From Amoebophrya sp. A120 (lineage: Eukaryota; Protista; Dinoflagellata): a stretch of DNA of 64,000 nucleotides. The notes under the pieces were generated by a model. It was given only the letters and a program-made list of their open reading frames with translations, had not been told where the DNA came from and searched no databases. The stretch is from positions 2,408,089-2,472,088 of the forward strand of contig CAJINV010000001.1 in assembly GCA_905178155.1 (NCBI GenBank), written 5' to 3'. A program made the translations under genes and the position numbers. This document shows, piece after piece, positions 96 through 22,061 of this stretch (the first letter of the stretch is position 1; each line of letters opens with the position of its first letter).

Positions 96-230
96 GACCA
101 GGGCCCCTGGGACCAGGGCCCCTGGGACCAGGGCCCCTGGGACCAGGGCCCCTAGGACCAGGGCCCCTAGGACCAGGGCCCCTAGGACCAGGGCCCCTAC
201 GGACTGGGGCCCCTACGGACTGGGGCCCCA
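96..230. repeat. 15-16 bp tandem repeat GACCAGGGCCCCT(G/A)G, about 9 units (inverted set at ~956-1044)
   Basis: Directly visible; no spacers between units. Confidence 0.9.
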
Positions 231-331
231 GTCGTGTCTCAGAATCTGGCGTCCCGGAATCTGGTGTGCCGGCGTCTGGATCTGGAAGAGTTGGGGCGTC
301 CCTCTACGTACAAAAAAAGCACAGCTCGACT

Positions 332-593
332 TATGAACTGCAAATATGTCTGGGGCTGGAAGGATGCAACTTCTGATGCGGCCTTTGGATTCTACCAAAA
401 TCTGTATTGCGTGAGCAGCAAGAGGAGTTCAGTTTTTGCCACGCAGAGGGGGCATTTCTCATGCGGTGTAGGCATCAGGAAGCGCTCGCAAAGGGTGTGA
501 TGCTGGGGCATGCATCACAGGCATCATGGATCATGCAAAATGAGCATGAGAAATCTCACAACCTTCCAGACCCAGACATTTTTACATTTGATA
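332..593. mobile_element. Introner family A, nested in the foldback element
   Basis: TATGAACTGCAAATATGTCTGGG...CCCAGACATTTTTACATTTGATA; direct repeat CGACT. Confidence 0.85.
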
Positions 594-1074
594 CGACTTT
601 CATGGTGACAATTTGAGATGTCTCTCGTTAGCACTTTGAGCTGCATCCCTGTCCACTCAAGCAGTGATTTTGCTGGGAAACATTTCGAATACAAACGGCG
701 CCCGTCGCATTGTAAATAGATCTGGGTCTGCACAACTAAGAACTTGTGACGCGTGTCGAGGAATATAGAATAAAGCGAAAGAGATGCTCTGGGTAGTCAG
801 CAGACTGCGTCACATATTACGTGTGGCCTGCCTTCTTCCACCTCCTGGCCCGATGCTAGGACTTACAAGACATGCGTACTTGGTGGCCCAGATACGCTGG
901 CAGACAGCTCCGGTTCCGGCCGCGCCTCGCCGTGTACCAGATTCCGGGACGCCGTTCAGTCCGTAGGGGCCCCAGTCCGTAGGGGCCCTGGTCCTGGGGG
1001 CCCTGGTCCCAGGGGCCCTGGTCTGAGCAGGGGCCCTGGTCTACCCGGATACCCAGATATATTTGCAATGCATA

Positions 1075-1867
1075 TCCACCGCGTGAGACAGCAGTCCAGG
1101 TCGAACCGGAACACGGGCACGTCCTGGTTCTGGTTCTATCAAATGCAAATATCGATCTGGGTCTGGAACAAGATTGCAGAACTTGTCATGCCGGTTTTAC
1201 GTGACCATGTTGGTCTAGCATGCAAGCCCTAGCATCACAGGTTTTGAGCAGGAGGTATCCCAATGCTTAATCCGCATGACAAATGCCCTGCTTCGGTGAC
1301 AACAAGTGGGCGACTTTTGCTGGCCAAGCATGATAGATTTTGGCATGATGTAGGGTTCGCATCACAAGTTTTAGGCCTTCCAGACCCAGACATATTTGCA
1401 TTTGATAGATTCGACCCCCGCTCCATTTGCCCGGACAGCCCGTCCATGAGCATCTGCAAGGACCGCTGCGCCTGGTCCTGGTAGTTCTTCGTTTCATAGT
1501 TGTAAATGTTCTTTTTCGGCTTCTTCTTTTTACTCTTGGACTCTTTGTCTTTGCCTTTGAAAGGCGCGGCTGCATTTTTCTTTATCGGATCAGCATCTAA
1601 GTTGTTGTCCTTCTCGTGCTTCGCTGCTGAGTCTTGCAGTTCTTGCTCCAATGCGGAAAAATTCTTTGTTCGCAACCAATCCGCTCCCTCTCCCTCCTCT
1701 TCCGTGCCGGAATCTTCAGGCTTCCCGCCACTTCCGGCAATCGCACCGCTCTTGCTGGACTCATGTTCGACGTCGTCGTTGTGTGACGTGTCTTCGGAAC
1801 GGGATCCGCGCCTCCTGCTCGACGTCCAGGGCCTCTTCACAAAACTTGTCAGATTCTTAAACCACAT
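1075..1867 (-). CDS. Hypothetical protein, 5' part (continues past window start); exons 1867-1408 and ~1131-1075
   Basis: ORF MWFKNL...ERGSN joins in frame to QNQDVPVFRFDLDCCLTRW when introner 1137-1407 plus one repeat is removed. Confidence 0.7.
1137..1407. mobile_element. Introner family A (non-canonical intron)
   Basis: TATCAAATGCAAATAT...ATATTTGCATTTGATA; direct repeat GGTTC/GATTC. Confidence 0.85.
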
Positions 1868-2550
1868 AGTGACGTAAACTCCTTTGACCGGATATAATTC
1901 GACTGCAAAAAACTTAGTGTTAAAAGTACTTAGTTAACAACACAGCCAGTATACATGAAACGAAGAAACCTCCAAAACTTTTATTACTCACAGAAGCGAA
2001 ACTCGAAACTATTGCAGCTGAATGAAACGCAGGTTGACGTCGCACGCTCCAGGCCAGCCTAGGTAGTATCAATCTACATAGTATCTTCGACCTACGCAGA
2101 GTTTTCACTTGAGTGACAGAACAAACTTCCACAGATCTCACGGAACTTCCGGATCAAGATCGTGTTCGCCATCGCCGCACGGATATCTTCACCACGTGGG
2201 ATGCTTTGTTCACACAGAGGATGTTAAATAGGATCTACTTACAACTGTCAAATCTTTGCACCGATGAGAGTAATGAATTTCTTTGGAGACGAATAAAGGA
2301 ACGAACATGCTTGCGATCTACACCTACACGAAAATGATTGAATCATTGCGCTCACGAAAAAAAAACTTCGTCGTCTAGCTGCAGCGAACAACGGAAGCTG
2401 CTACTCTTTCTGAGTGCAATCCTAGGCGCATCTTCTTGTCTGCTCACCTGGGAATGCTTATCGTCTGCGAACCTGCGCTGCGCGAGCGGAAAGAAGTTTT
2501 GCAATATGGTAGGTACTTCTGCCTCCACTTGCGAACTGGTTAAATCTCCT

Positions 2551-5500
2551 CTACAGCCACTTGAGCGGCATAACGTAGTCGGGGGAATCTGAGTAGCCAA
2601 AGAACTCTAGATCGAAGGCAAAGTGTTCCCGGACCAGTCCTATGGTCTCTTCCGTCCACAAGGCTTCCCACGTGGTTTCGCAGTTCCGGTACTGCACTTT
2701 TTTCGCGTCGAAGGAGCAGATCGGTCGCTCCGTGTTGCTTGAGGGGAGGACTTTTGGAAACTTCTTCGGTGCCGGGTGGCAATAATTGTACTCTTCGCAC
2801 AGAAGCGCGTAAAGCTCTTCCAAGTCTGGCCCTATTGTCTCCAGATGCAGGACAAAAAAATCGTCCAAGTCCTGCACTGGCCCGTTTATTTGTAGAAAGA
2901 CCTCGTCGTTGAGCATGTCGAGAAAAGGCCGCATGTGAAAGATGTCGCTGACATCCACTTCCGACTCCAGGTGGACGCAGAACCCCTTGTCTGTACTATC
3001 GCTGTGGTCTTCCTCTTGTTCAGTAGGAGAAGCTGTACCCCCCTCACCAGGATCATCTTGTACGGATGTTGACACGTGGGAGGTCCTCTCGTCGGTCAGC
3101 TCTCGCGAGATTGTGTAGCCTGCGTCTTTCGCCTTCTGGATCATTTCTGGGGTCGACTTGTTCACGCACATTTTCGGGTTTTGTTTGTCCGCGAAGTTGT
3201 CGCTGATGTCCTTCGTGAACCCGATTCCGTTCAACTCTCGCCACTGCGACCGTAGGTACAGCATTCGGCTCAGCCACTTCCCGAAGTCCTTCCAGTCTTT
3301 ATACGGCCCCGCCCGTTTTCCGCCGCCCCCGTTCGTTGGCGGCGCACTCGTGTTATCCGCGCTGTCTTCGTCCGTCCTTTCCGCCTCCTTCGGCGGCTCG
3401 TTTGGATGCCGCTGCGTGGGAAGCCACGCGAACTGGTACATGGAGGCCATGCGGACGAAGGGGTTTCGCGCCAGCACCACCTTCTTTCGCCACTTCTGGC
3501 TCAGGCAGCAGTTCGGGCACAGATTTGCCGGCGGAAGAAACCGCATCCACGTCCAGTGCTGCTGCGTGTAGGAGTCGGGCGGAAACCGGTGCATCAACCG
3601 CTGCGACAGGTCTTGCACCACCTCGTTCTTGTCCATGTGGCCCCAGCTGATGTTTAATTATTTGCGATAATTTTACTTGATCTAGACCATGTTCATCTTT
3701 ATTGATCTGTGTTGTGCACTTGTTCTTGTTGCAGCAGCGCCGAAAACAGGTCAAGATTCCTCATCCATGCGAAAGTAAAAATTATAAGTAGAGGTGGACG
3801 TAGTCAATTGTTTGATGATATCTTCAGGGCACACGCAGACAAGTTTGTTTCCCCACCTTCAGCAGTCAGAAGACATGGGTTAGAAAAACTCTTTGCTCAT
3901 CGTCATCATCAAGAATAGATCGGCAGTAGTTATGTTGACAAGGGAGAATATGTCCTCGCATGCTAAGAAGATCCAATCAGGGCACACGCAGACAAGTTTG
4001 TTTCCCCATGACAGTTCGACTGGTGTCGGAAGACATGGGTTAGAATAAAACTCTTTGCTCATCATAGAGAACGTGAAGATCACAATCATTCACAATATCA
4101 TGCTGAAATAGAAATAGAAATTCAAATTCCGTGCCGTTGGAAATAATAAAGGTGCTATTAAGCTAGTACATCAGGGCACACGCAGACAAGTTTGTTTCCC
4201 CATCTTCAGCAGTCGGAAGACATGGGTTAGAAAAACTCTTTGCTCATCATGAGATTGGCCGTGGAACTTGTCCTAGATACGATTCAGGCTTGACCTTCGC
4301 TTTCTTGATGTATCTGTCACGTCGAGGTGCGGCGTCGTAGTTTTACTTTTCAAAAGCTGTTACTATCAATCACTTGGGAGGTACAAGAGATGCTTATTGC
4401 AGCAGTGCAGTGTGAGCAAACTACATCGACGAGATCTATCGAGGAAGAGACATTCAGCGTACTTCGAGAATGCTTGTTGTGCTGCGGCGCATCAGCAGCT
4501 GCTCTACGATATAAATTCAAATACAAGCAATCAAAATGAATAAGTACTAGTCCAGCTCCGTAGCGAGCCAATCGATCATGACCTTTGGCCGTTGCAGCAT
4601 GGCGTCCATTATGAACTGCAAAAGTATCGTACTAGTAGTAATTGCAATACAAATTAGCTCAGCATGACAAATGGGGTCTGTCATGCTGTTTTGCCTTGGG
4701 ATGGAGATTTGCAATGCAAGACATGCATTTATACGAGTACGATACTTTTGCACAGGATATCCATTGCGTTTGCGAGACTGGTTTTGATGTAGGGTTCCAA
4801 ATCCATAATGTAGTTCACCGCCGTATCAAATGCAAATGTGTCTGGGTCTGGGAGGATGGAGCTTGTGATGCGTCCTGTGGGTCACTCAAAAATCTGTGTT
4901 GCGTGATCACCAGCAAAAGTTCTCCTTTTATGACCAACATGAGCGGGAGTTTCTTATGCAGGATAGGCATGATAGAGATTTCGCAGAATCTGTCATGCTA
5001 GGTCCTGCATTCCAGACCAATTGGGGCATGGAAAATATGCATGACAAATCTGCACTCCTCCAGACCCAGACACTTTTGCATTTGATACGCCGAGCTTGTC
5101 CCGGACTTTGGCAGCATGAAGAACGCGATCGGCGCGCCCATGGGACTATCAGAAGGAAAAATTGCCCCTGCCCATATCGAAGCGGCACGTCTCAGAAAAT
5201 TTCTAATGCGGATCAGTGGCCACAAATCGCGTCTGTCTTGCAAGAAGGCAACTCCAGAGGCTCCGCCGCAATATGGTGGCTGTCTGTGATGCTGGTGGGC
5301 CTACAGCATGGACGTTTCTGATGCCAAACGCCTAGGCCAGCCCCTCTCTACTCAGGCGTGATATGGGCCTGCAGTCCTTCACTGCAAGACACAGCTGATT
5401 TGTGTACGCAAATCCAGCATCAGAAACTTCGTTTCGATATGGGGAGGGGGAATTTTTCCTTCTGATAGGGACAGTGGAATAGTTGCGTCAACATGCCGGA

Positions 5501-6848
5501 ATTCTGCCCGGGCTTCCAGATTTGACAGTTTGAATTCAGCAACACCTTCTGCCGATCGCGCAACTGCGGCTCAATGTACCGGTGCGCCTGCATGATGCAC
5601 ATCCCCCCGCCCGGGCCGTAGGCGTCGCAGTGGTCGGCCCGGAAAGTCGACACCTTTTCGAACAGCGTTGGCTCGGTTGGATCAGTACTAGCAACTGAAG
5701 CCGGCGCGCCCAAGCTGACCCGTGTCAACTTGTCCAGCGTTTCGGGGTGGAAGTCGAGGAAGTTCAGCATGTATCGTAAGGAAAAATCCTCCTCCCCATA
5801 TCAATAACGAACCCACAGAAAATCTGCAATGCTGATTTGTGACCGCAAATCGCCTCTGTCATACAAAAAAGCAACTCCACAGGCTCCGCCGAATTATAAG
5901 GGCGGTCTGTGATGCTGTTGTGCCTACAGTATGGACATTTGTAATGCTAGGCGCCTATGTATTTCAAACTCAAAGCCTTGCTTCCCAGGGTTTGCATATA
6001 ACTGCAGTCCTCTACCGCAAGACAAGTCTGATTTGTGTACGCAAATCTAGCATCACAAATTTCCTGTTCGATATGGGGAGGGAAGATTTTTCCTTTTGAT
6101 AGCATGTTCCCCTTCACTCGTTCCCGCAGGCCCGCGACGAACGCCGGCTCCGCCTCCTCGAACGCGGTTCACTATCCTGAGTAAAAACGTACCCCCACCA
6201 GAGTTGTAGTGCAGATTTGCAAAGACGGGAAGACTTGTAATGCGCATCCCCATGAGAGCCATTTCCAGTCGTGTTTTGGAATTTGTGATGCTGTGAACAG
6301 GATGAGCAGATGAATCTGTGATGCGGCTGCACTTGCTAACCTGCACTACACTGCAGAGTGCAACTTGTCATGCGTGACTCACAAAACTCCTAGGTTTGTG
6401 CTGCAAAATCCCCATCCTGACTCTGGTGTGGGTACGTTTTTACTCAGGATATCCACAAGTGCTTGTTTTCCGGCTCGAAAAGCAGCTTTGCGAGGTCCTG
6501 TTGCAGTTCCAAATTGAATTCAGCCACTTTTTCCGGGTCGCACAGGTGGTACCAGTGCAGCTCCGACTGCCGGTTGGGGACGCGGTACAAGGGCATCACG
6601 GTCTGCATCACGCGGTGGACCTGCTCCAGCATCACCGGCGGCTCCGTCTCGTTCCATGTGGGTGGGAACAGGAGGCCGCCCCGCTTGTTCTCGGACTGTT
6701 TTTTAGTAGTTTCAACATCTTGCCTGTCGTGGTCCTGCCCGGCAACGAGCAACTTCTGGCGGGAAGCAGTGAATGAACCGCTCGGCCACGCGAGAAAGAG
6801 CCACAAGAAAAGTATTCTGCGAGGATGAAGAACTGGTGCCATTTTCAT
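2551..6848 (-). CDS. Carbohydrate sulfotransferase-like protein (Sulfotransfer_2 type), 7 exons
   Basis: Hydrophobic N-terminus ILFLWLFLAW; 5'-PAPS motif LPKSGTSS (~5090-5115); 3'-PAPS motif RNPFVRMASMY. Frame is continuous after removing 5 introners and GT-AG intron 3647-4547. Paralog at 22062-24315. Confidence 0.8.
3824..3909 (-). ncRNA. Box C/D snoRNA, copy 1 (intronic)
   Basis: ATGATGA...CTAACCCATGTCTT-CTGA...GTGGGGA...GTGTGCC-CTGA, with terminal TCTT/AAGA stem. Confidence 0.65.
3977..4065 (-). ncRNA. Box C/D snoRNA, copy 2 (intronic)
   Basis: Box C ATGATGA, D' CCGA, C'-like ATGGGGA, box D CTGA; guides conserved, D'-C' loop divergent. Confidence 0.7.
4171..4250 (-). ncRNA. Box C/D snoRNA, copy 3 (intronic)
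   Basis: Same boxes and guides; similarity among copies ends at boxes C and D. Confidence 0.7.
4610..4759. mobile_element. Introner family D
   Basis: TATGAACTGCAAAAGTATCGTACT...AGTACGATACTTTTGCACAGGATA; direct repeat TCCAT. Confidence 0.85.
4824..5087. mobile_element. Introner family A
   Basis: TATCAAATGCAAA...TTTGCATTTGATA; direct repeat CGCCG. Confidence 0.9.
5147..5467. mobile_element. Introner family C
   Basis: TATCAGAAGGAAAAATT...AATTTTTCCTTCTGATA; direct repeat GGGAC. Confidence 0.9.
5772..6101. mobile_element. Introner family C
   Basis: TATCGTAAGGAAAAATC...GATTTTTCCTTTTGATA; direct repeat GCATG. Confidence 0.9.
6173..6451. mobile_element. Introner family B
   Basis: TATCCTGAGTAAAAACGTACCC...GGGTACGTTTTTACTCAGGATA; direct repeat TTCAC/TCCAC. 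Confidence 0.9.
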
Positions 6849-7366
6849 TTTTCCCTTAGTTCTATAGATACAACCGACCGTAGCGATCTGCGTACTTGCG
6901 CCGCGGCGATTGCGAGTCGAGTGTGGTCATTGAACAGAAAATTACGAAAAAACCGAACAGAGGAGATTTACCGTTCGACATTTGTGACCGATGAAATTCG
7001 AAAAGTCAGGACAACGAACGCGCTCCGTGATCAAGAATGAATGATGCTCAATCTTGATCTGTAGAAAACGAACAACAGGAGTGCCGCGGACTGCTTAAAA
7101 TGCAGACACGCGAGGCTTTCGCGCACCGCCCTGTCGGAAGCGCCACAGCCGCCAAAGGATTTTTTTTTCGTATGAAAGCAACTCTTTACATTCTGTAGAC
7201 AATACCTACACAAATGAATTTCCTGCCTTCAAATCAATTCAAATTCTAGCTTCAGCTCAACCGTTCGTAGATTACACCACTGTCAGGAGCGCTAGATTAG
7301 ATGCCTTTCAACAACTAGACTAGTGTCATGTTGAAGCTGCAAGAACAAGTGACGAAAAGTAGCCAC

Positions 7367-7477
7367 TTATTTCTTCTTCATGGACATCATCTTCATCTTC
7401 ATCGACATCTTCATGGACATCTTCTTCATGACCGGCGCGGCGTCTGCGGCCTTCATCATCTTCATCATCTTCGCCAT
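7367..7477 (-). CDS. 36-aa Met/Lys-rich micro-protein (DVNP N-terminus-like), copy 1
   Basis: MAKMMKMMKAADAAPVMKKMSMKMSMKMKMMSMKKK-TAA; AAAATG start context; peptide identical in 4 copies. Confidence 0.7.
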   Translation of the reverse strand: MAKMMKMMKAADAAPVMKKMSMKMSMKMKMMSMKKK

Positions 7478-8594
7478 TTTCAAGGTTTGGGGGTTTTGTT
7501 TGGAAAAAACTTTTCCGATTCGTTTCCCTATGTTCGGCAAAGCAAAATAATTTAACGACCAAATATCACAGCAAAGGGGCAAGAACCGGGAGCGGGTCAT
7601 GTGGTTTGTGAGTGGAGCAATGAGAAAGTGATTGTGGCTTTGCCTTACTAGACGAGTTCGACGAACGATCGCGATGGCGTGCTTGAATAAGTTCGATTCA
7701 CCACGACGGCCTTGTACGATCACTCGAATTTTCGCGAACGATTTGAGCACACCGAGATGACCTTGCGATGTCCTATCTTGTGTACGAACGACTTACTTGC
7801 TGCATGCATCATTTGAGAACCAAAGCCGATGGGTATCATCCTCCTCAGATGCTTACGGACCGTGGATCGGCGACACCGAGCAGAGGAGATTTACCGTTCG
7901 AAGTACCGATGAAATTGGAAAAGTGAAAACAACCAATGCATTTAATGCTCAGCATGAATGATCCCAATCTTGTTCTTGACCGACCGAGATAAACGCATAA
8001 CAGCAGTACCCAAAGGTGCGCCAAATGCAGACACGAAAGGGAAAGCCGTTCTCGCGCCGCCCTCTCAGAAGCGCCACAGCCGCCCAAGGATTTTTTTTCC
8101 GTATGAAAGCAACGTGGTGCTTTGTTCACGGAAGTGCGGTTTTCCGCTTGAAGTAGGTGCTGGTTTGTTCACGCGAAACTAGCTCTACCGCCACTTCTTC
8201 AAAGAAGTAAAATACTACTTGGCCAAACAGTCTTTTGCGTAGACCTGAGAAAAAACTAGAAAAATACTGAGACGATGCTCTGCCTCTTGGGAAGCTTGAA
8301 AGTTGGTGAAAAACGAAGCAAAAAGTAATAGCAAGCGTCTGACGTTAGCAAAAATCAAAATCATCTAACTGCTTTCCGTTTTTCAAGGTATATGGCAAAG
8401 TAGAAGCCGTCAGATTAGGACGCTCGTGATCTCACTACCTATCACATTATCTTGCAACTCTAAATAATATGCGTTTCGTTTTGGAGTGCGAACCATTTTT
8501 ACCAGAGCAGTACCATTACCACTAGCTACCAGAAGCCGAGCCATCTCGATCTTAATCTTTAGCAGGAGTAGGATATGGATATAATTCGTTCTCG

Positions 8595-9053
8595 TTACAT
8601 AATGACGCAGCGGCACATTTCTTTGTCTACTTGCGCCACCTGTGCCTTCGTTTCCTTCAGTTCCGCCTGGATTGCATCCATCTTCGCCTCGAACTTGTTG
8701 AGCTTCTCCACCAACAGGTTCCCCGCCGTCGCGGCCTCTGCCACGCTCCCCAGTCCCGCTTCCAACGCCCCGATGCGGAGCGCCGTTGTTTCTGCGTTCA
8801 CTGCAGTCTCCTGCAGTTTCAAGGTCACGGCACTCGGATCAATCGCCGTGCTGAGATTCGCCATCGCCGCGCGCAACGACTTCACGTCCTGGTGCGTCTG
8901 TATCACCCGGGGCAAGATGCTGGATTCGCACTTGGACACACTGGAAAGTATTTCGGCACTCCCTCTAGCAACTTTCTCGTCGGCCAACCAAATGGCCTGC
9001 GCTTGACGCACGTCGTCGGCACTCAGCAACGCTGATCCCGAAGCTGATTCCAT
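8595..9053 (-). CDS. Hypothetical coiled-coil protein, paralog 1
   Basis: AAAATG start MESASGS; heptad-like C-terminus LVEKLNKFEAKMDAIQAELKETKAQV; ORF kept in the duplicate. Confidence 0.65.
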   Translation of the reverse strand: MESASGSALLSADDVRQAQAIWLADEKVARGSAEILSSVSKCESSILPRVIQTHQDVKSLRAAMANLSTAIDPSAVTLKLQETAVNAETTALRIGALEAGLGSVAEAATAGNLLVEKLNKFEAKMDAIQAELKETKAQVAQVDKEMCRCVIM

Positions 9054-9951
9054 TTTGTGGCGAGACACGCAGGCACAGGCAGAGGGACGCAAGCGCAATA
9101 TATGACTGAGAGCGCTCAAAAACGAAACTCTTGAAATCTAGACTGCTCTGCCTCCCATTGTGAAAAATTCTCCGGCTCGCTTCCCCAACTATACTATTGA
9201 AAAGCAAAAGCCTGAAGGCCAAAATATTACAGCGAACTACGGACGACCGGAAGGAGGGGGTCACGCGGATATCAGTTTGCGGATGAAACGAAGACACAGA
9301 AGTAGTTGTGGCTTTAAACTGAGATAGATTGCCATACACGAGCTCTACGGACAACGATGCGTTTGCACGCTCCCGAATATTTGCAAGTGATTTCGTCACA
9401 AACGCGGCCGACAGCTTGCGATAATATCCTATGTCGCATACGACCGAGTTCCTTACGCTTACATCTCTAGAAGACCAAAGCCGATTATTAGCATCCTCGT
9501 CAGATGCCTATGGGCCGTGGACCGGCGACACCGAGCAGAAGAGGTTGACAGTTCGAAATACCGATGAAATTCGAAAAGTTAAAACAGACAATGCACTCAA
9601 TGCTCAGCATGAATGATCCCTTGTTCTTGACCGACCGAAATAAACGCACAACAGCAGAAGTACCCAAAGGTACGCCAAATGCAGACACGAAAGGGAAAAA
9701 CCTTTCTCGTGCCGCTCTCCCAGAAGCGCCACAGCCGCCCAAGGATTTTTTTTTGTATGAAAGCAACTCTTTACATTCTGTAGACAATACCTACACAAAT
9801 GAATTTCGTGCCTTCAAATCAATTCTAGCTTCAGCTCAACCGTTCGTAGATTACACCACTATCGGGAGCGCTAGATTCGATGCCTTTCAACAACTAGACT
9901 ACGACTAGTGTCATGTTGAAGTTTGAAGAACAAGCGACAGAAAAATGCCAC

Positions 9952-10062
9952 TTATTTCTTCTTCATGGACATCATCTTCATCTTCATCGACATCTTCATG
10001 GACATCTTCTTCATGACCGGCGCGGCGTCAGCGGCCTTCATCATCTTCATCATCTTCGCCAT
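9952..10062 (-). CDS. 36-aa Met/Lys-rich micro-protein, copy 2
   Basis: Same peptide; Ala11 codon GCT. Confidence 0.7.
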   Translation of the reverse strand: MAKMMKMMKAADAAPVMKKMSMKMSMKMKMMSMKKK

Positions 10063-10893
10063 TTTGAAGGTTGGGGGGTTTTGTTTGGAAAAAACTTTTC
10101 CGATTCGTTTCCCTATGATAAAGCAAAACAATTTAACGACCAAATTATATTACAGCAGAGGGGCAAGTAGAACCGGGAGCGGGTCATGCGGATAGTGGTT
10201 TGTGAGTGGAGCAATGAGAAAGTGATTCTCACTTTGCCTTTACTCGACGAGTTCGACGAACGATCACGATGGCGTGCTTGAATGAGTTCGATTCACCACG
10301 ACGGCCTTGTACGATCACCCGAATTTTCGCGAACGATTTGATCACACCGAGATGAGCTTGTGATGTCCTATGTTGTGTACGAGCGACTTACTTGCATGCA
10401 TCATTCGAGAACCAAAGCCGAGGGGTATCATCCTCATCAGATGCTTATGGACCGTGGATCGGCGACACCGAGCAGAGGAGGTTGACCGTTCGAAATACCG
10501 ATGAAATTCGAAAAGTTAAAACAAACAATGCACTCAATGCTATAGGATAAATGATCCCAATCTTGTTCTTGACCGACCGAAATAAACGCACAACAGCAGA
10601 AGTACCCAAAGGTGCACCAAATGCAGACACGGAAGGGAAAGCCTTTCTCGCGCCGCCCTCCCAGAAGCGCCACAGCCGCACAAGGATTTTTTTTCGTATG
10701 AAAGCAACTCTTTACATTCTGTAGAGTACCTACACAAATGAATTTCGTGCCTTCAAGTCAATTCTAGCTTCAGCTCAACCGTTCGTAGATTACACCACTG
10801 TCAGGAGCGCTAGATTTTTAGATGCCTTTCAACATCAACTAGACTAGTGTCATGTTGAAGTTCTTTGAAGAACAAGTGACGAAAAGTAGCCAC

Positions 10894-11004
10894 TTATTTC
10901 TTCTTCATGGACATCATCTTCATCTTCATCGACATCTTCATGGACATCTTCTTCATGACCGGCGCGGCGTCGGCGGCCTTCATCATCTTCATCATCTTCG
11001 CCAT
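10894..11004 (-). CDS. 36-aa Met/Lys-rich micro-protein, copy 3
   Basis: Same peptide; Ala11 codon GCC. Confidence 0.7.
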   Translation of the reverse strand: MAKMMKMMKAADAAPVMKKMSMKMSMKMKMMSMKKK

Positions 11005-11996
11005 TTTGACGGTGTGGGGGTTTTGTTTGGAAAAAACTTTTCCGATTCGTTTCCCTATGTATGGTAAAGCAAAATGATTCAACGACCAAATATCACAGCG
11101 AGGGGGCAAGAACCGGGAGCGGGTCATGCGGATAGTGGTTTGTGAGTGGGGCAATGAGAAAGTGATTCTGGCTTTACCTTACTAGACGAGTTCATCGACG
11201 AACGATCACGATGGCGTGCTTGAATGAGTTCGATTCACCACGACTCGCTTGCACGACCGCCCGAATTTTTGCGAACGATTTGATCACACCGAGATGAGCT
11301 TGTGATGTCCTATGTTGTGTACGACGACGAACGACTCACTTGCATGCATCATTCGAGAACCAAAGCCGATGGGTATCATCATCATCAGAGGCGTTCCATG
11401 AAACCGAGCAGAGGAGGCTGACTGCGCGAAATACAAACGAAATCCGAAAAGTGAAAACAACGAGATCTTCGCCATCTTGGCGACTTGGTGGTCTTTTTTG
11501 GAAAAACTTCTGTTTTTTTGATGTTCCGGGAAGTGCGGTTTTCCGCTTGAAGTAGGCGTTGGTTTGTTCACGCGAAACTAGCTCTAGCGCCACTTCTTCA
11601 AGGAAATAAGAAAGTAAATTAATACTTGGCCAAACACTCTTTTGCCAAGTAGACCTGAGAAAAAACTAGAAAAATACGGGTGAGAGGATGCTTTGCCTCT
11701 TGGGAAACTTCAAGGTTGGTGAAAAACGAAGCAAAAAGTAATAGCAAGCGTCTGACGTTAGCAAAAATCCAGTAAACTGCTTTCCGTTTTTTAGGGTATA
11801 TGGAAAAAAAGCCGCCAGATTGGGACGCTCGTGACCTCATTACCTATCATATTATCTTGCAAGTGCAACTCTAAATATGCGTTTCGTTTTGGAGTGCGAA
11901 CCATTTTTACCAGAGCACTAGCATTGCCACTCGCTACCCGAAGCCGAGCCATCTCGATCTTTAGCAGGAGTAGGGTATGGATATAATTCGTTCTCG

Positions 11997-12464
11997 TTAC
12001 ATAATGACGCAGCGACACATTTCTTTGTCTCCTTGCGCCACCACCTGTGCCTTCGTTTCTTTCACTTCCGCCTGGATTGCATCTATCTTCGCCTCGAGTT
12101 TGTTGAGCTTCTCCACCAACTGGCTCCCCACCGTCGCCGCCTCTGCCACGCTCCCCAACCCAGCTTCCAACCCCCCGATACGGAGCGCCGTTGTTTCTGC
12201 GTTCACTGCAGTCTCCTGCAGTTTTACGCTCACGGCACTCGGATCAATCACCGTGCTGAGATTCGCCATCGCCGCGCGCAACGACTTCACGTCCTGGTGC
12301 GTCTGTATCACCCGGGGCAAGATGCTGACTCCGATATAGTCTCTATGGTCAGCGAGGCGATGGCGATCGGAAGGATAGCCGCCTTCTCTGTCCTTTTGGA
12401 AGATGGCATACGTTTGACGGTAGTCGTCGGCAGTCAGCGACACCGATTCCGGTGCGAGCGCCAT
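11997..12464 (-). CDS. Hypothetical coiled-coil protein, paralog 2
   Basis: AAAATG start MALAPES; near-identical to paralog 1 from SILPRVIQTHQ onward. Confidence 0.65.
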   Translation of the reverse strand: MALAPESVSLTADDYRQTYAIFQKDREGGYPSDRHRLADHRDYIGVSILPRVIQTHQDVKSLRAAMANLSTVIDPSAVSVKLQETAVNAETTALRIGGLEAGLGSVAEAATVGSQLVEKLNKLEAKIDAIQAEVKETKAQVVAQGDKEMCRCVIM

Positions 12465-12503
12465 TTTGTCGCGAGGCACACACCGCCAGACAGACACAAT
12501 ATA

Positions 12504-13224
12504 CCAATAATAGCCGCGTCCGCGGAGGTAGTGAGGTCATGGCGGTCTTTTTGTCTTCACGCCAAAAAAGGACGCAACTTCTCTGCCCACCATGCCATCG
12601 TGAGTAATGTTATGCACGACGGCACGGCGGTCGCTAAAAATCTCAATCCAGAGGCGGCCCCCATTTGGTTTCGAATCGAAGAACCTTCCCCGCATGCTAT
12701 GGCCCCGCCAGGGCCCACGCCAGGGTCGGCCCCTTGGGAGCCCCAAATCGGGCCCATAGCATGCGGATTGGCTTTTTGCTTTTGGCGGTCTTTGTTTTTT
12801 TTGTTTTTTTTTTGGCAAAATGCTGCATCTTCTGGTCTTCAGTCCGCCTCTGAAATGGCGGATTTTGAAGGCGTCTTTTGCGCGGCCCGAATGTGGGGAA
12901 AAATGAGGCCCATACCATGCGGATTCTCTGTTTTTTTCGGAGTGCTGCTTTTTGGGCGCCCATTTTTGGGCGCCGCAAATCGCCAGAAACTAAGGCGGTG
13001 GGCGCCTCAGAAGGGCGCCCCTTTTGCCGGCTCCCCTGCGTCGTTTTATCAAGCGGGAATCGATAGAATCCGCCCGGGCTATTTTGCCGCAAACGCCCCG
13101 GCCGCTTGATAATTGAAAACTTTTTTTGTTAAAAAACACTTCCGGCCGCTTGAAAACTGCCGGTCGTTTTGCGTGATGCATGTCAAAAAAACCGCTAGGA
13201 TAGAACGTTCGTGACCTCACTACA
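12504..13224 (-). mobile_element. ~720-bp non-autonomous element with asymmetric inverted repeats (Helentron/DINE-like), copy 1
   Basis: Absent from the paralogous site at ~9097-9105 (CAATATATGA). Flanked by TA. Inverted pair GTAGTGAGGTCA (subterminal) and TGACCTCACTAC (terminal), with hairpin CCGC-n4-GCGG. Confidence 0.8.
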
Positions 13225-14049
13225 TATGATAGCGCTCAAAAATGAAACTCTTGAAATCTGGACCCTGTTCCCTATTGTGAAAAATTCTTCGGCTCGCTTC
13301 CCTAACTATTGAAAAACAAAAGCTTGAAGGTCAAAATGTCACAGCGAACAAATGATCGGAAGCAGGGGGGTCATGCGGATATCAGATTGCAGATGCAAAG
13401 AGGAAAGAGTAGTTGTGGCTTTAAACTGAGATAGATTGCCATAAACTAGCTCTACGGACCACGATGCGTTTGCACGCGCCCGAATTTTTGCAAATGATTT
13501 GGCCACAGATCACCGAGAGCTTGCGATAATATCCTATGTCGCATACGAACGACTTCCTTCCATCTCTGGAAGACCAAAACCGATTACTATCATCCTCATC
13601 AGATGATAGTGGACAGTGGATCGGCGACACCGACCAGAGCAGGTTGACCGTTCGAAATACCGATGAAATTCGAAAACTTAAAACAAAAAACGCACTCAAT
13701 GCTCAGGATGAATGATCCCAATCTTGTTCTTGACCGACCGAAATAAACGCACAACAGCAGAAGTACCCAAAGGTGCGCCATATGCAGACACGAAAGGGAA
13801 AGCCTTTCTCGCGCCGCCCTCTCAGAAGCGCCGCAGCCGCCCAAGGATTTTTTTTTCGTATGAAAGCAACTCTCTACATTCTGTAGACAATACCTACACA
13901 AATGAATTTCGTGCCTTCAAATCAATTCTAGCTTCAGCTCAACCGTTCGTAGATTACACCACAATCAGGAGCGCTAGATAAGATGCCTTTCAACAACTAG
14001 ACTAGTGTCATGTTGAAGTTTGAAGAACAAGCGGCGATAAAGTAGCCAC

Positions 14050-14160
14050 TTATTTCTTCTTCATGGACATCATCTTCATCTTCATCGACATCTTCATGGA
14101 CATCTTCTTCATGACCGGCGCGGCGTCGGCGGCCTTCATCATCTTCATCATCTTCGCCAT
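14050..14160 (-). CDS. 36-aa Met/Lys-rich micro-protein, copy 4
   Basis: Same peptide; Ala11 codon GCC. Confidence 0.7.
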   Translation of the reverse strand: MAKMMKMMKAADAAPVMKKMSMKMSMKMKMMSMKKK

Positions 14161-14503
14161 TTTGAAGGTTTGGGGGTTTTGTTTGGAAAAAACTTTTCCG
14201 ATTCGTTTCCCTATGGTAGCGCGAAAAATTTGAAGCCAAAATATCACAGCGAGCGGGCACCGGGGGCGGGTCATGCGGATATTGGTTTGAACAAGGTGAA
14301 GCAATGAGAAAACGATTGTGATTTCAGATTATGGGGGGGGTTGCTTTTACTTTCTACGGACGATGACGTGTTACTTCGAATGAGTTCTACGAACCACGAT
14401 GCGTTTCTAAGTACGACCGCCCGAATCACGATGTCTGAATTTGGTCTTGGTCATACCGAGAGATTGCAATATCCTAGGTTGTAGACGATGACGAACGACT
14501 TTA

Positions 14504-15223
14504 CCAATAATAGCCGCCTCAGCGGGGGTAGTGAGGTCGAGGCGGTTTTTTTGTCTTCACACCAAAAAAAGACGCGAATTCTATGCGCGCCATGGCATCG
14601 TGAGTAATGTTATGCACGACGGAACGGCGGCCGCTAAAAATCTCGATCCAGAGCTGGCCTCCATTTGGTTTCAAATCAAAAAACCTTCGCCGCATGCTAT
14701 GGACCCATCAGGGCCCTTGCCAGGGTCGGCCCCGTGGGAGCCCCAAATCGGGCCCATCGCATGCGGATTGGCTTTCTACTTTTGGCGGACTTTCGTTTTT
14801 ATTGTTTTTTTTGTCAAAATGCCGCATCTTCTGGCCTTAAGTCCGCCTCTGAAGTGGCGGGCTTTGGTGGCGTCTTTTGCGGGGCCCGAATGTGGGCCAA
14901 AATGAGGCCCATACCACGCGGATTCGCTGTTCTTTTCGGAGTGCTGCTTTTTGGGCGTCCCTTTTTCGGCGCCCCAAATCGCCAGAAACCAAGGCGGTGG
15001 ACGCCTCAGAAGGGCGCCCCTTTTGCCGGCTCCCCTGCGTCGTTTTATCAAGTGCGAATCGATAGTTTTCGACCGGGCTTGTTTGTTGGCAAAGCCCCGG
15101 CCGCTTGATAGTTGGAAATTTTTTATGTGCAAAAACACTTCCGCCCGCTTGAAAACTGCCGGTCGTTTTGCGTGATGCATGGCAAAAAAACCGCTAGGAT
15201 AGAACGTTCGTGACCTCACTACA
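14504..15223 (-). mobile_element. Helentron/DINE-like element, copy 2
   Basis: TA-CCAATAATAGCCGC...TGACCTCACTACA-TA; colinear with copy 1. Confidence 0.8.
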
Positions 15224-15225
15224 TA

Positions 15226-15915
15226 CAAACTACAGCCCTCCCCGAGTACAAAAAAAAGTCCCTTTGTTGGTGACCACCATAGCGTCGCGCATAACATTAC
15301 TCCCGATGGGGCGGTGGACCATAAAAAACACGGCCGGAGGTCGCGCACCTGCTGCTGTCAGCGGAGCAACGCTTTCCCGCATGCTATGGCCCCCAAGGGC
15401 CTCCGCCCGGGCCGGCCCCTTGGGCGCCCCAAATCGGGCCCATAGCATGCGGATTAGCTCTCGGACTTTGGCGGCCATTGTTTTTTTTAGTTTTTTTGTA
15501 GGAAAAGTCGCAACTTTTGCCCTGCTCCCCGCCTTACAAATGCCCGATTTTGGTGGCCGGCTTTGCGACCTCCAAACGTGGGCCAAAATGGGGCCCATAC
15601 CAATACCATGCGGATTCGCGCTTTTGTTCGTCTTGGCATTTTTGCGGCGCCCCTTTTTGGGCGCCCCAAATCGCCAGAAACCAAGGCGGTGGGCGCCTCA
15701 GAAGGGCGCCCCTTTTGGCGGCTCCCTTGCGTCGTTTTATCAAGTGCGAGTCGATAGTTTTCGACCGGGCTTGTTTGATGGCAAATCCCCGGCCGCTTGA
15801 TAATTGGAAATTTTTTATGTCAAAAAAGCCTTCCGGCCGCTTGAAAACTGCCGGTCGTTTTGCGTGATGCATGGCAAAAAAACCGCTAGGATAGAACGTT
15901 CGTGACCTCACTACA
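15226..15915 (-). mobile_element. Helentron/DINE-like element, copy 3 (divergent left end), head-to-tail with copy 2
   Basis: Right ~350 bp near-identical to the other copies and ends TGACCTCACTACA-TA; left end differs. Confidence 0.7.
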
Positions 15916-16249
15916 TATAATATACCTCGCTGAAAAGCCAAAACCGACTCACGTCAATATCATGCTTGGCAATATATACCAAAAACCGATTCTGTCGGGA
16001 TGTGAACAGGCGCTATCGTCGTAATGCGTCCATGGACGATGACAGTCTATGCGACGGCGAACAATCTCGCTCGCTTTTGACGACTTCTATCTTTCTGCTC
16101 CTTTCACGTTCAAAAACTTAACATCTACATCTGAGAAATTTTGTGGTACTATCGTTCGAGTGAAACCATTATTTCCACAACTGTAAGTTGCCAGAGGGCT
16201 GTGTACTCCTCGGTGGAAGAAGATACAACGAACTTCATGTTCAAACCTT

Positions 16250-19200
16250 TTAGTATCTTCTGCCGCCACCGCCCCACTGTCTCGGGTGGTTTGGATTGTG
16301 GTCGTAGGGGCCGCCTCTGGAGCTGTTGCTGTAGCCCCCGCCATTATTTCCCCAGTTGTTCTTGCCTCCGCCCTTATTTCTGTTCTTCCCGCCGCCTCCG
16401 CCCCAGTCGTTATCCCGTCCATACTGATTATGCCCCGCGGCTTTACTGCTCGTGCTCCCGCCGTAATTGTTGTTATAGTTATTTCCGTAATTGTTGTTTC
16501 GGTCGTACCTTCCCGTGTTGCTGTTGTAATTCGAGGGCGCCGCCCGGCCGGCCGCCGGGTTGTACTCTTCCCGCGGGGCCTGGTTGATCCTGATGGCCTT
16601 TCGCGTGTCCAAATCGTAAGTCCACTGGTTGTCATCCTGGTTATTTTGCCTTTTGTTTGACTGGTTCTGCATCTGGATCCAGGCGTTGGAACCAACTTCC
16701 GGTTCGTTCGAACCCCCAGCGCCTCCCTGGTCGTCGTAATTCTCGAAGTTTTGCCGCTGTTTGCCCTTCGCTTCCAAACCCTTCTTCCCGGTGGCTTTTC
16801 CCCCCTTGGTCCCCATCGTGTGGTTAATCTCTTCGAAAAAGGTCTGCAGCAAGTAGAACAGCTTCTGCAAAAATTGCGTCTCCTGCGGGGAGGGCGGGTT
16901 GTGCGGATTTTCGCAAAATTTCGCGAACACGAACTTCAGCGCCCGGCGGATTTGACAGATGGAGGTCGCGTGGTTTCCCTGCATGGTGAACTTGATCCAC
17001 CCGTCGTGGAGGGCCAGCTCGTTGTTTTCGAGTCTTTCTTCCCCGGCGATCAAACACAAAATCAGCGGGTGAACCAAGCTCATCTGTTTGATGCTGTAGC
17101 TCGACTCGACCTGCAGCAGCTCCTCGAAAATGCACCACTCGTCGTTCGCAATCACGTCTCCCAAGCCCCGGGACGTGCCGTAGCAGGTGGACATGTGCGC
17201 GCTGGCGCCGAGCTTGCCGCCCTTCACCTCCATCTCCCGCGTGTTTTTCCCGCACCGTTTCACGGCCACGTTCGGGTAAATCCCGGCAGTCAGGACGGAC
17301 AGAATCAAGTGATCCTGCCCGCAGTTACGGGACGCAAAACCGTCGGAATCGCCCAGACCTGATACGTTTTTTCATTTCACCAATTATATGTAGTGAGGTC
17401 ACGAACGTTCTACCCTAGTGGTTTTTTTGACATGCATCACGCAAAACGACCGGCAGGTTTCAAGCGGCCGGAGGTGTTTTTGCATATAAAAAATTTTCAT
17501 TTATCAAGCGGCCGGGGCTTTGATATCAAACAAGCCAGGTCGAAAACTATCGACTCCCGCTTGATAAAACGACGCAGGGGAGCCGGCAAAAGGGGCGCCC
17601 TTCTGAGGCGCCCACCGCCTTAGTTTCTGGCGGTTTGGGGCGCCCAGAAAGGGGCGCCCGAAAAGCAACAACCCGAAAAAACAGCAAATCCGCATGGTAT
17701 GGGCCCCATTTTGGCTTACATTCGGGCCCCGCAAAAGACGCCACCAAAATCCGCCATTTCAGAGGCGGACTGAAGGCCAGAAGATGCGGCATTTTAATAA
17801 AAAAAACAAAAAAAACAAAGTCCGCCAGAAGCAAAAAGCCAATCCGCACGCTATGGGCCCGATTTGGGGCTCCCAAGGGGCCAACCCTGGCGGGGGCCCT
17901 GGCGGGGCCATAGCATGCGGGGAAGGTTTTTCATGTCGAAACCAAATGGAGGCCACCTCTGGATCGAGATTTTTAGCGACCGCCGTGCCGTCGTGCATAA
18001 CATTACTCACGGCGGCATAGTGGGAAGGGAAGTCGCGTCGTTTTTTGGAGCGAAGACAAAAAAACCGCCATGACCTCACTACCCCCGCTGAGGCGGCTAT
18101 TATTGGTATGTGTTGGCTTTGGCATTGTCGTCGTGTGGAACGAATGGACAAGGACAATATGTCGAGTTGTCCTGACCATGAGCTAACTGAAAGTGCGCTC
18201 TTGTTGAATAAAACAGCTTCAGCCGTTTCTCTACTGCACAAATTTAAGTCTGGATCTGGAACTAGAAATATATTGCAATGATCTTCAAAAAGTACCTTGA
18301 TCCGGCAAGTCCGCTCGCAGTTTCTGTGACTGGTCCGCCATCTGTCGCACGGTTTTTGCGTTGAGCCCGTTATCGCGTAAGAAGTCCAACCGCGTCCCCT
18401 GTTTCGACTGGTCCAGCGCCCGGAGCAGCGCGATGTGGTCGGAAACGTACGGCGCCGCCAGGTTGGTTTTGTGCGTGCCCGAGGAGTATCAAATGCAAAA
18501 ATGTCTGGGTCTGGAAGATTACCAGGTTTGTCATGCATATTTTGCATAACCCATGATGCCTGTAATGCCTGGCCGCGCATCACAGATTTTTAAAGGGCCT
18601 TCTGATGCGTATTCCGCATGAGAAACGCGCACTCCGCGCAGCACAAACTGAACTCCTCTTGCTGGTCATGCAATACAGATTTTTTTTACCTTCCAAAGAC
18701 AGCATCACAAATTGCAACCTTCCAGACCCAGACACTTTTACATATGATAAGGAGGCAGAGGCGTCTCCCAACGTGGTCATTTCCGTTTCCAGTTCCCCCG
18801 TGACCGGGTTATCCTGTGCAAAAGTATCGCACTCGTTGTATTGCAATCATGCATTACAAATCTTTTTCTTAAGGTCGATCCGCATTACAAATTTTATTTC
18901 TCATGCTGAGGAAATTTGTAATGCATTTATACGAGTACGATATTTTTGCAATTCATACGGGTTGCGCGATTGCGATGTTTTTTCCGTCAGTTTCTTGCCC
19001 AGGGTAAGAAATGGATCGCGGCAGAAGGCCGTGGACCCCACGACCTTCAGCACGTCGTCGAGCACACCGAAAAGCGCGCTCCACATCACGGTCTTTGCCA
19101 GTGTCGGCGGCAGGGAACTGTTACAGAGGGCCTTACCGAGCGGCGTCAGCATCTCGGTTCCGTGGTCCAGAGCGCCGATGGACTTCAGCAGGTCCACCGC

Positions 19201-21400
19201 GTTGTTGACGCCCAGTTGCTCGGGCGGGGTGGGGGCCTTCCCTAGAAAGGTCTGAATACTGGTGTCCTCCTGCTCGGTCTCTAATAAGAGCATCTTTGCC
19301 GCCAAACACGTCTCCTCGAGCGGGGACCGGAGCAGCTCCGGCTCGGTGAAAGCGTCCATACCTGTATTTTTATTTTCATAGTTTTTTTTGTTAGGTATCA
19401 CTTGTTGACACCTCCAGTACTTACGTGATAGTACTTACATACTTTTTTCTAAAACAAATTGCCCGATGTGAAATATCAGATCTTGATGTCTAAGCAAGTG
19501 ATGCAAGTGTTTCCACCACACAGGGGTCTGCAAAACTGTCTCAAACAAAAAACATACCTTCATCGCGTCTTTTTTTCGAAAACAAGTGAAAGCAGAGGCC
19601 GTTCTGCGTTCGTCCCGCCCGACCCGCTCGTTGCGAAACGGATGCTTGCGAGATCCAGGACGTGGTCAGGGTGGCCACCTTCAAATACGGATCGTAGCTC
19701 GTTTCCTTCGCCCGTCCGCAATCAATCACGAATTCCACGTCCGGCACGGTGATCGATGCTTCCGCGATGTTGGTCGTCAAAACGATTTTCCTCACCCCGG
19801 GGGTTTCGATCGGCTTGAAGCACTCCTGCTGCTGCTCCATGGACACGGAACCGTGGAGGGGCAAAATGGTGAACTTCTCCTTGTCCAAATCCGATTCCAG
19901 AATCCTTTGGCACTTGTCAATGTCGTTCCAACCGGTGAGAAAAACGAGGATGGATCCGAGTGGCTTCGCTTTCAACTTTTCCTGCTCCGCCGGGTCGTCT
20001 TTTTTCTCTTCCAATTGGGTTTTCAACACGTCCTTGTAGTTCTTGTCGATCCACATGATGAGCGCTTCGATGATCGGGAAGTCAAAATCCAAGCTGGACT
20101 GCTGCAACACGTCCATCTTCGCCAAACCGTCGGAGAGCTTGTTTTTGGAAAATTTGTCCTGCTTGATCAACGGCCGAATGTGGTCCGCCAAGCCCCAGTA
20201 GCCGTCGCCCCCGCGGCCCTCGCGCTGAAACACCGTCCTTTTCCACTCCTTTTCGTCTTCCATTTCGATGCCCGCGGACAGGATGCCCGGGCCGAGCCAC
20301 TTGCGGAACCCGGGGACCTTCCACAGCGTCGGGACGATTTGGTCCAGGTACAGCTCCCGGACCGGAAAGGTGCGGCCCGGGATGTGGACCTTCTGCACGA
20401 TGCCCTCAAAATAGTTTTCGAACGTTTCCAGTTGCAAGGTCGCGGACATCAGCACCAGCCGCATGTCGGGCCTTCGCTGCACCAAGTCGCGGATGAAAAT
20501 CAACGCGAAGTCGGCGAGTTTGTCCCGCTCGTGGATCTCGTCGAACACAATGTGGGTGATGCCGCGCAGTTCCGGATCCGTGAACAGCCGGCGGCGCAGC
20601 ATCGCGGTGGTGCAGAAAGTCAGTCGGGTCTGTTGCCGCGCGCGCTTCTCCAGGGGAACGTGGTACCCGACGTCGTTCTTGCTCTGCCCGCCCCGCTCGT
20701 CCTGGACGCGCTTCGCCAGCGAGATCGCCGCGATGCGGCGCGGCTGCGCGACGAGAATGTGTGCGGACTCATTGCCGTCAAGGAGAAACTGCGGCACTTG
20801 CGTCGACTTTCCGCACCCGGTCTCGCCGGAGATCAAGGTGACCTGCGACATCTGGACCGCTTCGAGCACTTCCTGGCGCTGCTCCCACGCGGGAAGTTCC
20901 TTCCGGCGCTCCCCGAGGTTGTGAATCTCGCAGGCGGCGTTCACCGCGTCCAGGTCCATCGGGATATGGAGTAAATCATCGGGATTCACGCCGTTCGATA
21001 GCATTTTACTCCGATTCTTGTTCACCGTGGACACCACATTGGCCTTCGGCACCGGTCGGTCCAACGCCACCGCGAGTCTCGCGCAGTCTAGCAGCGCGTG
21101 CTCCTGCGGGCCCTTCAGCCGCACCTCGCCGGGCGCCTTCTTGCCGCGCTTGCCCCGACCCTTCGCCTCCTGCATCCCGCCGGTGGGGTCGGACACGTAG
21201 ACGCGAATGTGTCTGTCGGCGCCGGACCCCTCGGAGAGCGTGAACAGGCCGAAGCCCTCGGCAATGCGGTGGACGTACTTCCGGTCGGCGGAAGAGAGGG
21301 AGCTGGCAAAAGCGATGAACGCCTTGTCATCCTCATTCCCCTTCTCGACCAGCTCAGAGAGCTGCCGCGAAATGTCCTTGCGAAACGATTCGGTCGTCAT
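16250..21400 (-). CDS. DEAH-box RNA helicase with N-terminal R3H domain (YTHDC2/DHX36-like), 5 exons
   Basis: R3H motif DRKYVHRIAE; GETGCGKSTQ, QPRRIAA, DEIHER, MSAT, TNIAEASIT, QRAGRAGR; HA2 and OB regions; G/N/R-rich tail. GT-AG introns 19362-19557 and 17359-18295, plus two introners. Confidence 0.9.
17389..18106 (+). mobile_element. Helentron/DINE-like element, copy 4 (inverted, inside a GT-AG intron of the helicase)
   Basis: TA-TGTAGTGAGGTCA...TGACCTCACTAC-CCCCGCTGAGGCGG-CTATTATTGG-TA. Confidence 0.8.
18487..18749. mobile_element. Introner family A
   Basis: Family A TIRs; direct repeat AGGAG. Confidence 0.9.
18810..18957. mobile_element. Introner family D (ends reversed relative to 4610-4759)
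   Basis: TATCCTGTGCAAAAGTATCG...CGATATTTTTGCAATTCATA; direct repeat CGGGT. Confidence 0.85.
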
Positions 21401-22061
21401 GGCTTGTTTATTTGTCGGGCTGTTTTTGCTGGGTAACTAAGATGTATGATTTGAAGATACAACTCTGAATACAGAGCTGCAGGACATCAACCCCCGGGAG
21501 GTATGGTTGATCTTAGATTGCGTGTTGAAGAACTTGTGCTCTTTCACGACGCACATGGAGCTTGTGTCGGTTGTACTAATCCTAATGCAGCAGTTTTCAT
21601 GGCACTAAACATAAATTTTTTTCCTGTGATGATTGAAGCTGAAGAAAAAATTGACAATCACTTACATTGGTAGATCATTTGCGATTCTGGGGCACAATGG
21701 AAGAAGGCTGCAGAGGTCGAGTCCAGGTTTTGAGAGCTGAGAACTCTATTTTTTTTTCTGTGATTCTGGAAGATCGATTATAAAGGCATGAAGCTAAGGA
21801 ACGTGAGTTTGACTTGTTCGTTGAAGCTAAGTTGGTGTGAACGCTGCCGCGCTCTCATTCGTGTGGGTCTAGTTGCTGGAGAGCACAATTTACAGCACCG
21901 AAAATGGAGATGGTGCTTGAGTGCTTTTTTCTTTCCTTTTGACGATCGCCTTACGGGATTCTCAATTTTTTGGTTCATTTACATCTTTCAGTTCTCCGTT
22001 ACTGCGTACATTAGTGATAGACTCAACAACGCGAGCGCGACGAGGATAACTTACATACTAG

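Follow-up and report, generated by a model that had tools for sequence, protein, structure and literature searches.

Can the N-terminal tail of a chromatin protein exist as a gene in its own right? The question is raised by a 64,000-nucleotide (nt) stretch of DNA from Amoebophrya sp. A120 (contig CAJINV010000001.1, positions 2,408,089 to 2,472,088), hereafter the window, to whose numbering all coordinates refer. On its minus strand lie, co-oriented and in tandem, four copies of a minute gene (Table 1) whose open reading frames (ORFs) all translate identically, as MAKMMKMMKAADAAPVMKKMSMKMSMKMKMMSMKKK, and all end in TAA. An earlier note, drawn from the letters of this DNA, had described four identical 36-residue copies with 14 methionines and 11 lysines and had likened them to the tail of DVNP, a dinoflagellate chromatin protein, standing without its core. 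The four ORFs bear out that description, and on the strength of sequence comparison the peptide is best seen as a DVNP tail module on its own.

The case for a gene begins with the pattern of variation among the copies. Across the 111 nt of the coding sequence (CDS) a single ungapped column varies and there are no indels; the one difference is synonymous and falls, just as the earlier note had it, on the third base of codon 11 (Ala11: GCA/GCT/GCC/GCC). Elsewhere the variable columns number 4 of 50 in the leader, again free of indels, 19 of 189 in the proximal 3′ region (with seven indel events), 34 of 110 in the distal 3′ region, and 23 of 82 in the 100 nt before the AG that precedes the leader (with 11 indels). 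Comparison of the CDS with both untranslated regions (UTRs) – 1/111 versus 23/239 variable columns, Fisher p=0.0012 – agrees with the claim that the flanks are the more variable, and none of the approximately 94 non-synonymous sites varies, for which the probability at the UTR rate is about 7e-5. Gene conversion within the array could contribute to this identity. Each copy carries AAAATGGCG at its start, behind a 50-nt leader that holds no ATG, and the motif CATAG, earlier placed about 50 nt before the start codon, sets its AG exactly 50 nt upstream of the ATG in all four copies, behind a T-rich tract (T 0.40–0.50); it is beyond this AG that conservation breaks. With the independent relative and the lack of a nearby core described below, these patterns support the view that the ORF is a real, constrained, stand-alone micro-gene.

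An independent relative extends the comparison beyond the array. Scanning JGI metagenome contigs gave two pattern matches, one of which (L001) was rejected, being antisense to a bacterial-type membrane-protein ORF. The other, L002 (Ga0314669_10175121), is an independent metagenome contig that encodes a complete 28-residue peptide, MAKMMKMMKAAAPAPVMKKMSMKMMKKK, followed by a stop. Relative to copy 3 there are three synonymous changes, two substitutions in the linker and an in-frame loss of eight codons; 22 of the peptide's first 24 residues are kept, and some 50 nt upstream stands TAGGGAAA, a site similar to that of the window copies. The 3′ region of L002 aligns weakly to the window, yet above chance (0–5 of 2000 shuffles reach the score), its 5′ side gives no alignment to the window above chance (121–439 of 2000), and its upstream neighbour, a B-box protein, is unlike the window's. 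Two short 3′ motifs are kept between the window copies (for example within 10696–10893) and L002:105–233. In five of five sequences one of them forms a hairpin, with a stem of 4 bp and UGUA in the loop, that may serve in control of the mRNA; since the stem is invariant, covariation lends it no support. A search of Rfam with positions 5500–18500 gave no match at E up to 1, and an 18-nt match between the L002 3′ region and a relic in the array (see below) was taken as chance (E 0.20).

The peptide is built from only seven residue types, with 39% Met and no Arg or Cys; its pI is 10.65 and its net charge about +9.5, with 0.39 sulfur atoms for every residue and a mass of 4.19 kDa (4.06 kDa without Met1), not the 4.3 kDa estimated before. 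Its centre is an Ala/Pro linker, and it is there that relatives differ. Met and Lys show no strong periodicity along the peptide, and the six frames of the window contain no other Met/Lys-rich stretch. AlphaFold returns one helix (pLDDT 83, pTM 0.40, four-row alignment), to which we give no weight because a single helix is a common default for short peptides.

Whether this is the right frame and the right start can be judged from the copies. An acidic, Asp/Glu-rich minus frame was rejected because copy 2 breaks it with a TGA; the remaining minus frame is riddled with stops, and two open plus-strand frames extend into the variable flanks. The exact 36-residue peptide is absent from 15 billion protein sequences, and copies 1 and 3 are present in NCBI nr/EukProt as unnamed 77-residue ORFs (P0004 and P0003, respectively). 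The suggestion that the gene lies below gene-calling thresholds is thus half right, two of the copies having been called in this longer form. We rejected the 77-residue annotation: the ATG it uses lies upstream of the acceptor-like AG, and in copy 2 the frame is not extended in this way. Only the 36-residue form is thus shared by every copy, and the database ORFs probably begin at the wrong start.

A critical issue is whether a DVNP core is hidden nearby, a core that the earlier note had found missing downstream and onto which, it had cautioned, transcripts might be spliced. The DVNP family of Pfam matched none of 159 minus-strand stop-to-stop frames of at least 28 residues in positions 1–14400, and gave no match to the L002 frame; four core-like DVNP motifs occur in none of the window's six frames. 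The peptide itself matched no Pfam family at E up to 1, hence neither DVNP (PF19060) nor an HU-like domain. Among the joints listed for reads and contigs mapped on the window none leads from the CDS to a further exon, and the only CDS-adjacent one, 7296–7366, falls after the stop codon. In the RNA of relatives the stop lies at or near the same place and different UTRs follow. Lacking the core by which DVNPs are defined, the peptide falls outside that family.

Evidence for kinship with DVNP tails came from the alignment in supplementary file 5 of PMC11953307, a study of 718 DVNPs. The part of the alignment examined includes seven entries with CAD79 accessions, of which two, CAD7944557.1 and CAD7962998.1, have first eight residues identical to those of the peptide. 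Both share with it a strongly basic, Met/Lys/Ser/Ala wording, including Met-Ser-Met-Lys, and then continue into the DVNP core, whereas in the peptide a stop follows the terminal lysines. By eye, the whole peptide corresponds to a Lys-rich stretch like the DVNP N-terminal extension; unlike DVNP it is 28–36 residues long, with the Ala/Pro linker in its middle and no hidden Markov model match to the family. The eight-residue start is visible as text in only these two entries, gap placement being able to hide others. Its chance probability is 3e-4 for a peptide-like composition, or 0.002 for one of seven entries, so the likeness exceeds what composition gives. Two Hematodinium-type entries shown (DVNP.5 and DVNP.10) have Lys/Ser/Gly-rich tails with few Met, and the likeness proposed earlier is thus specific to Met-rich tails of CAD79 DVNPs. 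These are probably Amoebophrya proteins, an origin that we presume for all but one further CAD79 accession. That one is assigned to Amoebophrya in PMC12787238. Co-oriented tandem copies, as in the peptide array, are reported for DVNP genes too, Amoebophrya having 10 such genes with at most three in tandem (bioRxiv 2024.02.09.579734).

Searches of sequence collections were less telling. Among 1.84 billion representative sequences the only match was the window's own P0003. Word-seeded searches scored one of seven candidates at 42–135 residues (P0003 again), none of one at 136–2000 residues, and none of 163 at 20–70 residues with a four-row alignment; these negatives are weak evidence, since DVNPs seen in the published alignment were missed as well. 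The ESM Atlas holds no named cluster for the peptide, and one unnamed 43-residue cluster at 0.92 with low recognition (1064) is a weak lead. Viral contigs gave no match to the peptide pattern.

Is the array expressed? Eight of 18 listed sequencing runs were used (X1, X2, X5, X6, X8, X16, X17 and X18): X5 (polyA) and X8 are recorded as RNA, and X16–X18 are raw reads from 2026 under one species label. The others (X3, X4, X7 and X9–X15), in which word shares were small, were left out. Indels diagnostic of copies 2 and 3 occur in X1 contigs of depth 2,255–2,456, and the 3′ region as a whole reaches a summed depth of 6,279–11,413 in that run, versus 0 in bins 6501–7031 and 11–381 in bins 7563–9500. 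The indel pair 7353/7361 matches copy 2, which leaves copies 1 and 4 without copy-specific RNA evidence. X5 and X8 cover the 3′ region at depth 4–10, with 0–6 other letters per contig. The raw reads of X16–X18 reveal only a relative's gene. Of the X17 reads, 358 follow the window up to and including the TAA, beyond which they run into a foreign UTR (decoded by hand from loose ends), and 238 end at 7414 in adapter-like sequence, which we take to be a template-switch adapter; if that identity holds, its orientation places the RNA on the minus strand. Other reads, likewise decoded by hand, exit at 7408 into a slightly shorter Met/Lys run plus stop (27 in X16, 25 in X18) or just behind the ATG into foreign leaders (19 and 15). 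Deep coding-region contigs in X2 and X8 stop at the same place and go on into a different UTR (also hand-decoded), and most of those in X2 carry the Ala/Pro linker of L002. Overall, the data support, short of proof, transcription of the peptide gene and its 3′ UTR.

Two side observations concern longer or displaced relatives. X1 and X2 contain paralogues with other Ala/Pro/Lys linkers and at least 255 unaligned letters, some of which may be true DVNP mRNAs. From organism B, X6 contributes on 10912–10956 a contig of 2,250 nt at depth 207, probably DNA, in which the latter half of the Met/Lys block and the stop are present; the codons before this half-block are, by hand decoding, not Met/Lys-rich, and the contig is either a diverged member or a case of the block used as a C-terminal tail.

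What might such a peptide do? We see about an even chance that it is a free, basic DVNP-tail peptide made in bulk, predicted to bind DNA through its lysines and to bridge strands through methionine contacts with itself and with DVNP tails. DVNP itself binds DNA (PMC6723414). A spliced leader would be joined at the AG 50 nt before the ATG; the mRNA would probably be translated in bulk, and a 4-kDa product should enter the nucleus freely. There the 11 lysines would neutralise DNA phosphates, and the 14 methionines would offer soft hydrophobic contacts, both from peptide to peptide and with the similarly worded DVNP tails, such that DNA segments would be bridged. More speculatively, demand may peak when chromatin recondenses for the dinospore stage; a role in sporulation is proposed because Amoebophrya chromatin is described as condensed in dinospores and decondensed in trophonts (PMC9478091). 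Protamines and small lysine-rich sperm nuclear basic proteins are, like the peptide, very small, very basic and of low complexity, and condensation of DNA by charge neutralisation, as with protamines, would be predicted of it.

Several points count against bulk condensation by a free tail or set the peptide apart from known chromatin proteins. Protamine-type proteins are Arg-rich and often Cys-rich, whereas the peptide has neither residue, is 39% Met, comes from a protist parasite and bears no sequence relation to them. The analogy with sperm nuclei is discussed in PMC6723414. Dinoflagellate histone-like proteins (HLPs) such as HCc3 are likewise small, basic and nuclear, but own an HU-derived C-terminal DNA-binding domain of which the peptide has no counterpart; the N-terminal domain of HCc3 is reported to have bound no DNA itself and to serve oligomerisation, modulating DNA binding (PMC1885672). 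HLPs are reported absent from early-branching taxa in PMC6723414 and PMC10624901. The match to DVNP tails was judged by eye in low-complexity sequence, and because profile and word searches, HMMER included, linked the peptide to no DVNP, the kinship rests on that match. No spliced leader appears among the loose ends listed for the mapped runs. As to abundance, the RNA status of X1 and X2 is a guess, and expression is poorly gauged by contig depth, which cannot rank genes, just as holes in coverage prove nothing. Coding-region depth reaches 120,590 at 7403 in X1 and about 160,000 in X2; at that position 113,878 of the 120,590 in X1 (94%) carry a letter that all four copies lack, and X2 includes contigs that pass into wording of the DVNP-tail type. 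The extreme depth is for these reasons not creditable to the array, and may come largely from other genes, in part from DVNP mRNA.

One alternative, which we consider unlikely but worth keeping in view, is that the peptide modulates DVNP without condensing DNA: as a tail without a core, comparable to the single-domain 'microProteins' of plants (PMC9638782), it would compete for tail–tail contacts, import factors or modifying enzymes and so tune or loosen chromatin. The start held in common with DVNP tails suits this, as does the oligomerising, modulatory N-terminal domain of HCc3 (PMC1885672), and an N-terminal tag is reported to have removed DVNP toxicity in yeast, whether through impaired function or lower expression (PMC5906630). 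Several gene copies and deep RNA coverage, with the caveats on depth just given, sit better with a bulk structural product, and with a net charge of +9.5 the peptide could scarcely fail to bind DNA.

To an independent origin of the tail we give the same small share of belief. The Met/Lys tail would here be a syndinian gene family of its own, encoding a protamine-like spore-chromatin peptide and serving as the module that gave the DVNPs of this lineage their N-terminal extension by fusion or continuing gene conversion. A history in which a DVNP copy lost its core would be simpler. Viral DVNPs, however, lack the Lys-rich N-terminal extension of cellular DVNPs (PMC6723414), so that a free-standing tail gene might also have been the donor. 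Were this history true, dinoflagellates would have a further class of nuclear protein and the origin of the DVNP tail would be explained.

Improbable, in our estimation, is a store of sulfur and nitrogen in which Met and Lys from digested, sulfur-rich host chromosomes would be banked for the free-swimming dinospore. The sulfur content of the peptide and its freedom to vary in length (28 versus 36 residues) would fit, and host chromosomes are reported to hold about 8.5 times more sulfur than the parasite and to be engulfed (PMC9478091). But a store should tolerate substitutions, and none of the 94 non-synonymous sites varies, although gene conversion could also explain this; the retention of 22 of 24 first residues in L002 points the same way, and storage has no need of an exact DVNP-like start.

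Slightly more improbable still is an RNA- or ribosome-binding peptide, nucleolar or akin to a small ribosomal protein, or else a methionine-based sink for oxidants. Such binding factors tend to be tiny, basic, multi-copy and deep in RNA-like data, as the peptide is, and surface Met residues scavenge oxidants. DVNP's cationic N-terminus has been suggested to target nucleoli (PMC5906630). Yet no Pfam family matches at E up to 1, the DVNP-tail start points to chromatin instead, and nothing in the present analysis ties the peptide to redox stress. That the copies are non-functional fragments of a DVNP tail, alike through recent duplication or gene conversion and transcribed with no useful translation, or that another frame is the true one, is very improbable: a relic and a probable deletion do reveal turnover in the array, and 3-nt indels are expected from slippage in runs of ATG and AAG whether coding or not, but conservation is far stronger in the CDS than on either side of it, L002 keeps start, frame and stop where similarity of the flanks is nearly gone, and the other frames meet the TGA in copy 2 (acidic minus frame), the variable flanks (plus strand) and the minus-strand RNA indicated by the X17 adapter, insofar as we have named that adapter correctly.

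The coordinates of the array are collected in Table 1.

Table 1. Features of the peptide gene array and of the ORFs interleaved with it.
Feature	Position	Strand	Remark
Peptide gene copy 1, CDS including TAA	7367..7477	-	also annotated, with an ATG further upstream, as 77-residue P0004
Peptide gene copy 2, CDS	9952..10062	-	no in-frame ATG upstream
Peptide gene copy 3, CDS	10894..11004	-	also annotated as 77-residue P0003
Peptide gene copy 4, CDS	14050..14160	-	
50-nt leader and acceptor-like AG (7529-7528), copy 1	7478..7529	-	putative trans-splice acceptor
Leaders and acceptor-like AG, copies 2/3/4	10063-10114, 11005-11056, 14161-14212	-	layout as in copy 1
Conserved proximal 3′ region, likely 3′ UTR, copy 1	7170..7366	-	weakly alignable to L002 3′ region
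Proximal 3′ region homologues, copies 2/3/4	9755-9951, 10696-10893, 13858-14049	-	
Relic of diverged paralogue: leader and first codons, MAKI at 11475-11464	11464..11506	-	cut off by duplicated flank
Junction of a distal 3′ flank module with the DNA that lies upstream of the relic, no CDS between	8099..8131	.	probably a copy with CDS deleted
Interleaved ORF, 152 residues, coiled-coil-like, C-terminus CVIM	8595..9053	-	duplicated along with array
Interleaved ORF, second copy, 155 residues, coiled-coil-like, C-terminus CVIM	11997..12464	-	

The truncated relic beginning MAKI, pointed out in the earlier note, is real, 42 nt of its leader and first codons being alike to the array copies at 79–81%, though its range lies one base from where it had been placed. 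Both interleaved ORFs form singleton clusters and match no Pfam family above cut-off. Their CVIM ending is presumably a CaaX-type prenylation signal, and the product is a possible membrane or nuclear-envelope anchor.

Other features of the surrounding DNA deserve brief mention. A repeat of about 730 bp (82–90% identity; 12501–13230, 14502–15225, 15372–15921 and 17383–18109, one copy partial and one inverted) both flanks and breaks up the array, and may be a non-autonomous mobile element that aided its duplications. Upstream of the array, on the same strand, lies a gene for an R3H plus DEAD/DEAH helicase (19541–21436, minus strand, with frames down to 16250). The minus-strand ORFs at 2551–3657 and 22062–23744 look related by eye; sulfotransferase matches to the latter are weak and below cut-off. 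Dispersed introner-like elements of at least three families, 240–330 bp long and with terminal inverted repeats, occur throughout the window (for example 18483–18751, 37195–37463, 44245–44518, 6173–6454 and 5144–5471). Of 21 elements checked, 20 have exact terminal inverted repeats of 9–22 nt, as against 4–7 nt at most of 2,000 randomly chosen spots; with the 8–20-nt inverted repeats described for Amoebophrya introners (PMC7789003), the elements fit that class and, taken with the DVNP-tail match, point to an Amoebophrya-type syndinian.

Dinoflagellates pack their DNA without nucleosomes, and the means by which they do so have long been a question; a natural gene for the tail separates the DVNP tail from its core. 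No core-less DVNP-tail peptide is described in the titles and abstract openings of the literature covered, a coverage that has most subscription papers, the original DVNP paper among them, outside it. Surveys that seek DVNPs by core domain or with a full DVNP query, as in PMC10624901, are likely to miss a tail-only gene, and a 4-kDa peptide could escape ordinary gels. DVNP itself is reported hard to express, whereas a peptide of 36 residues can be synthesised and assayed directly. In a group of marine parasites that is common, the peptide encoded by this array may be an abundant product that has been overlooked.

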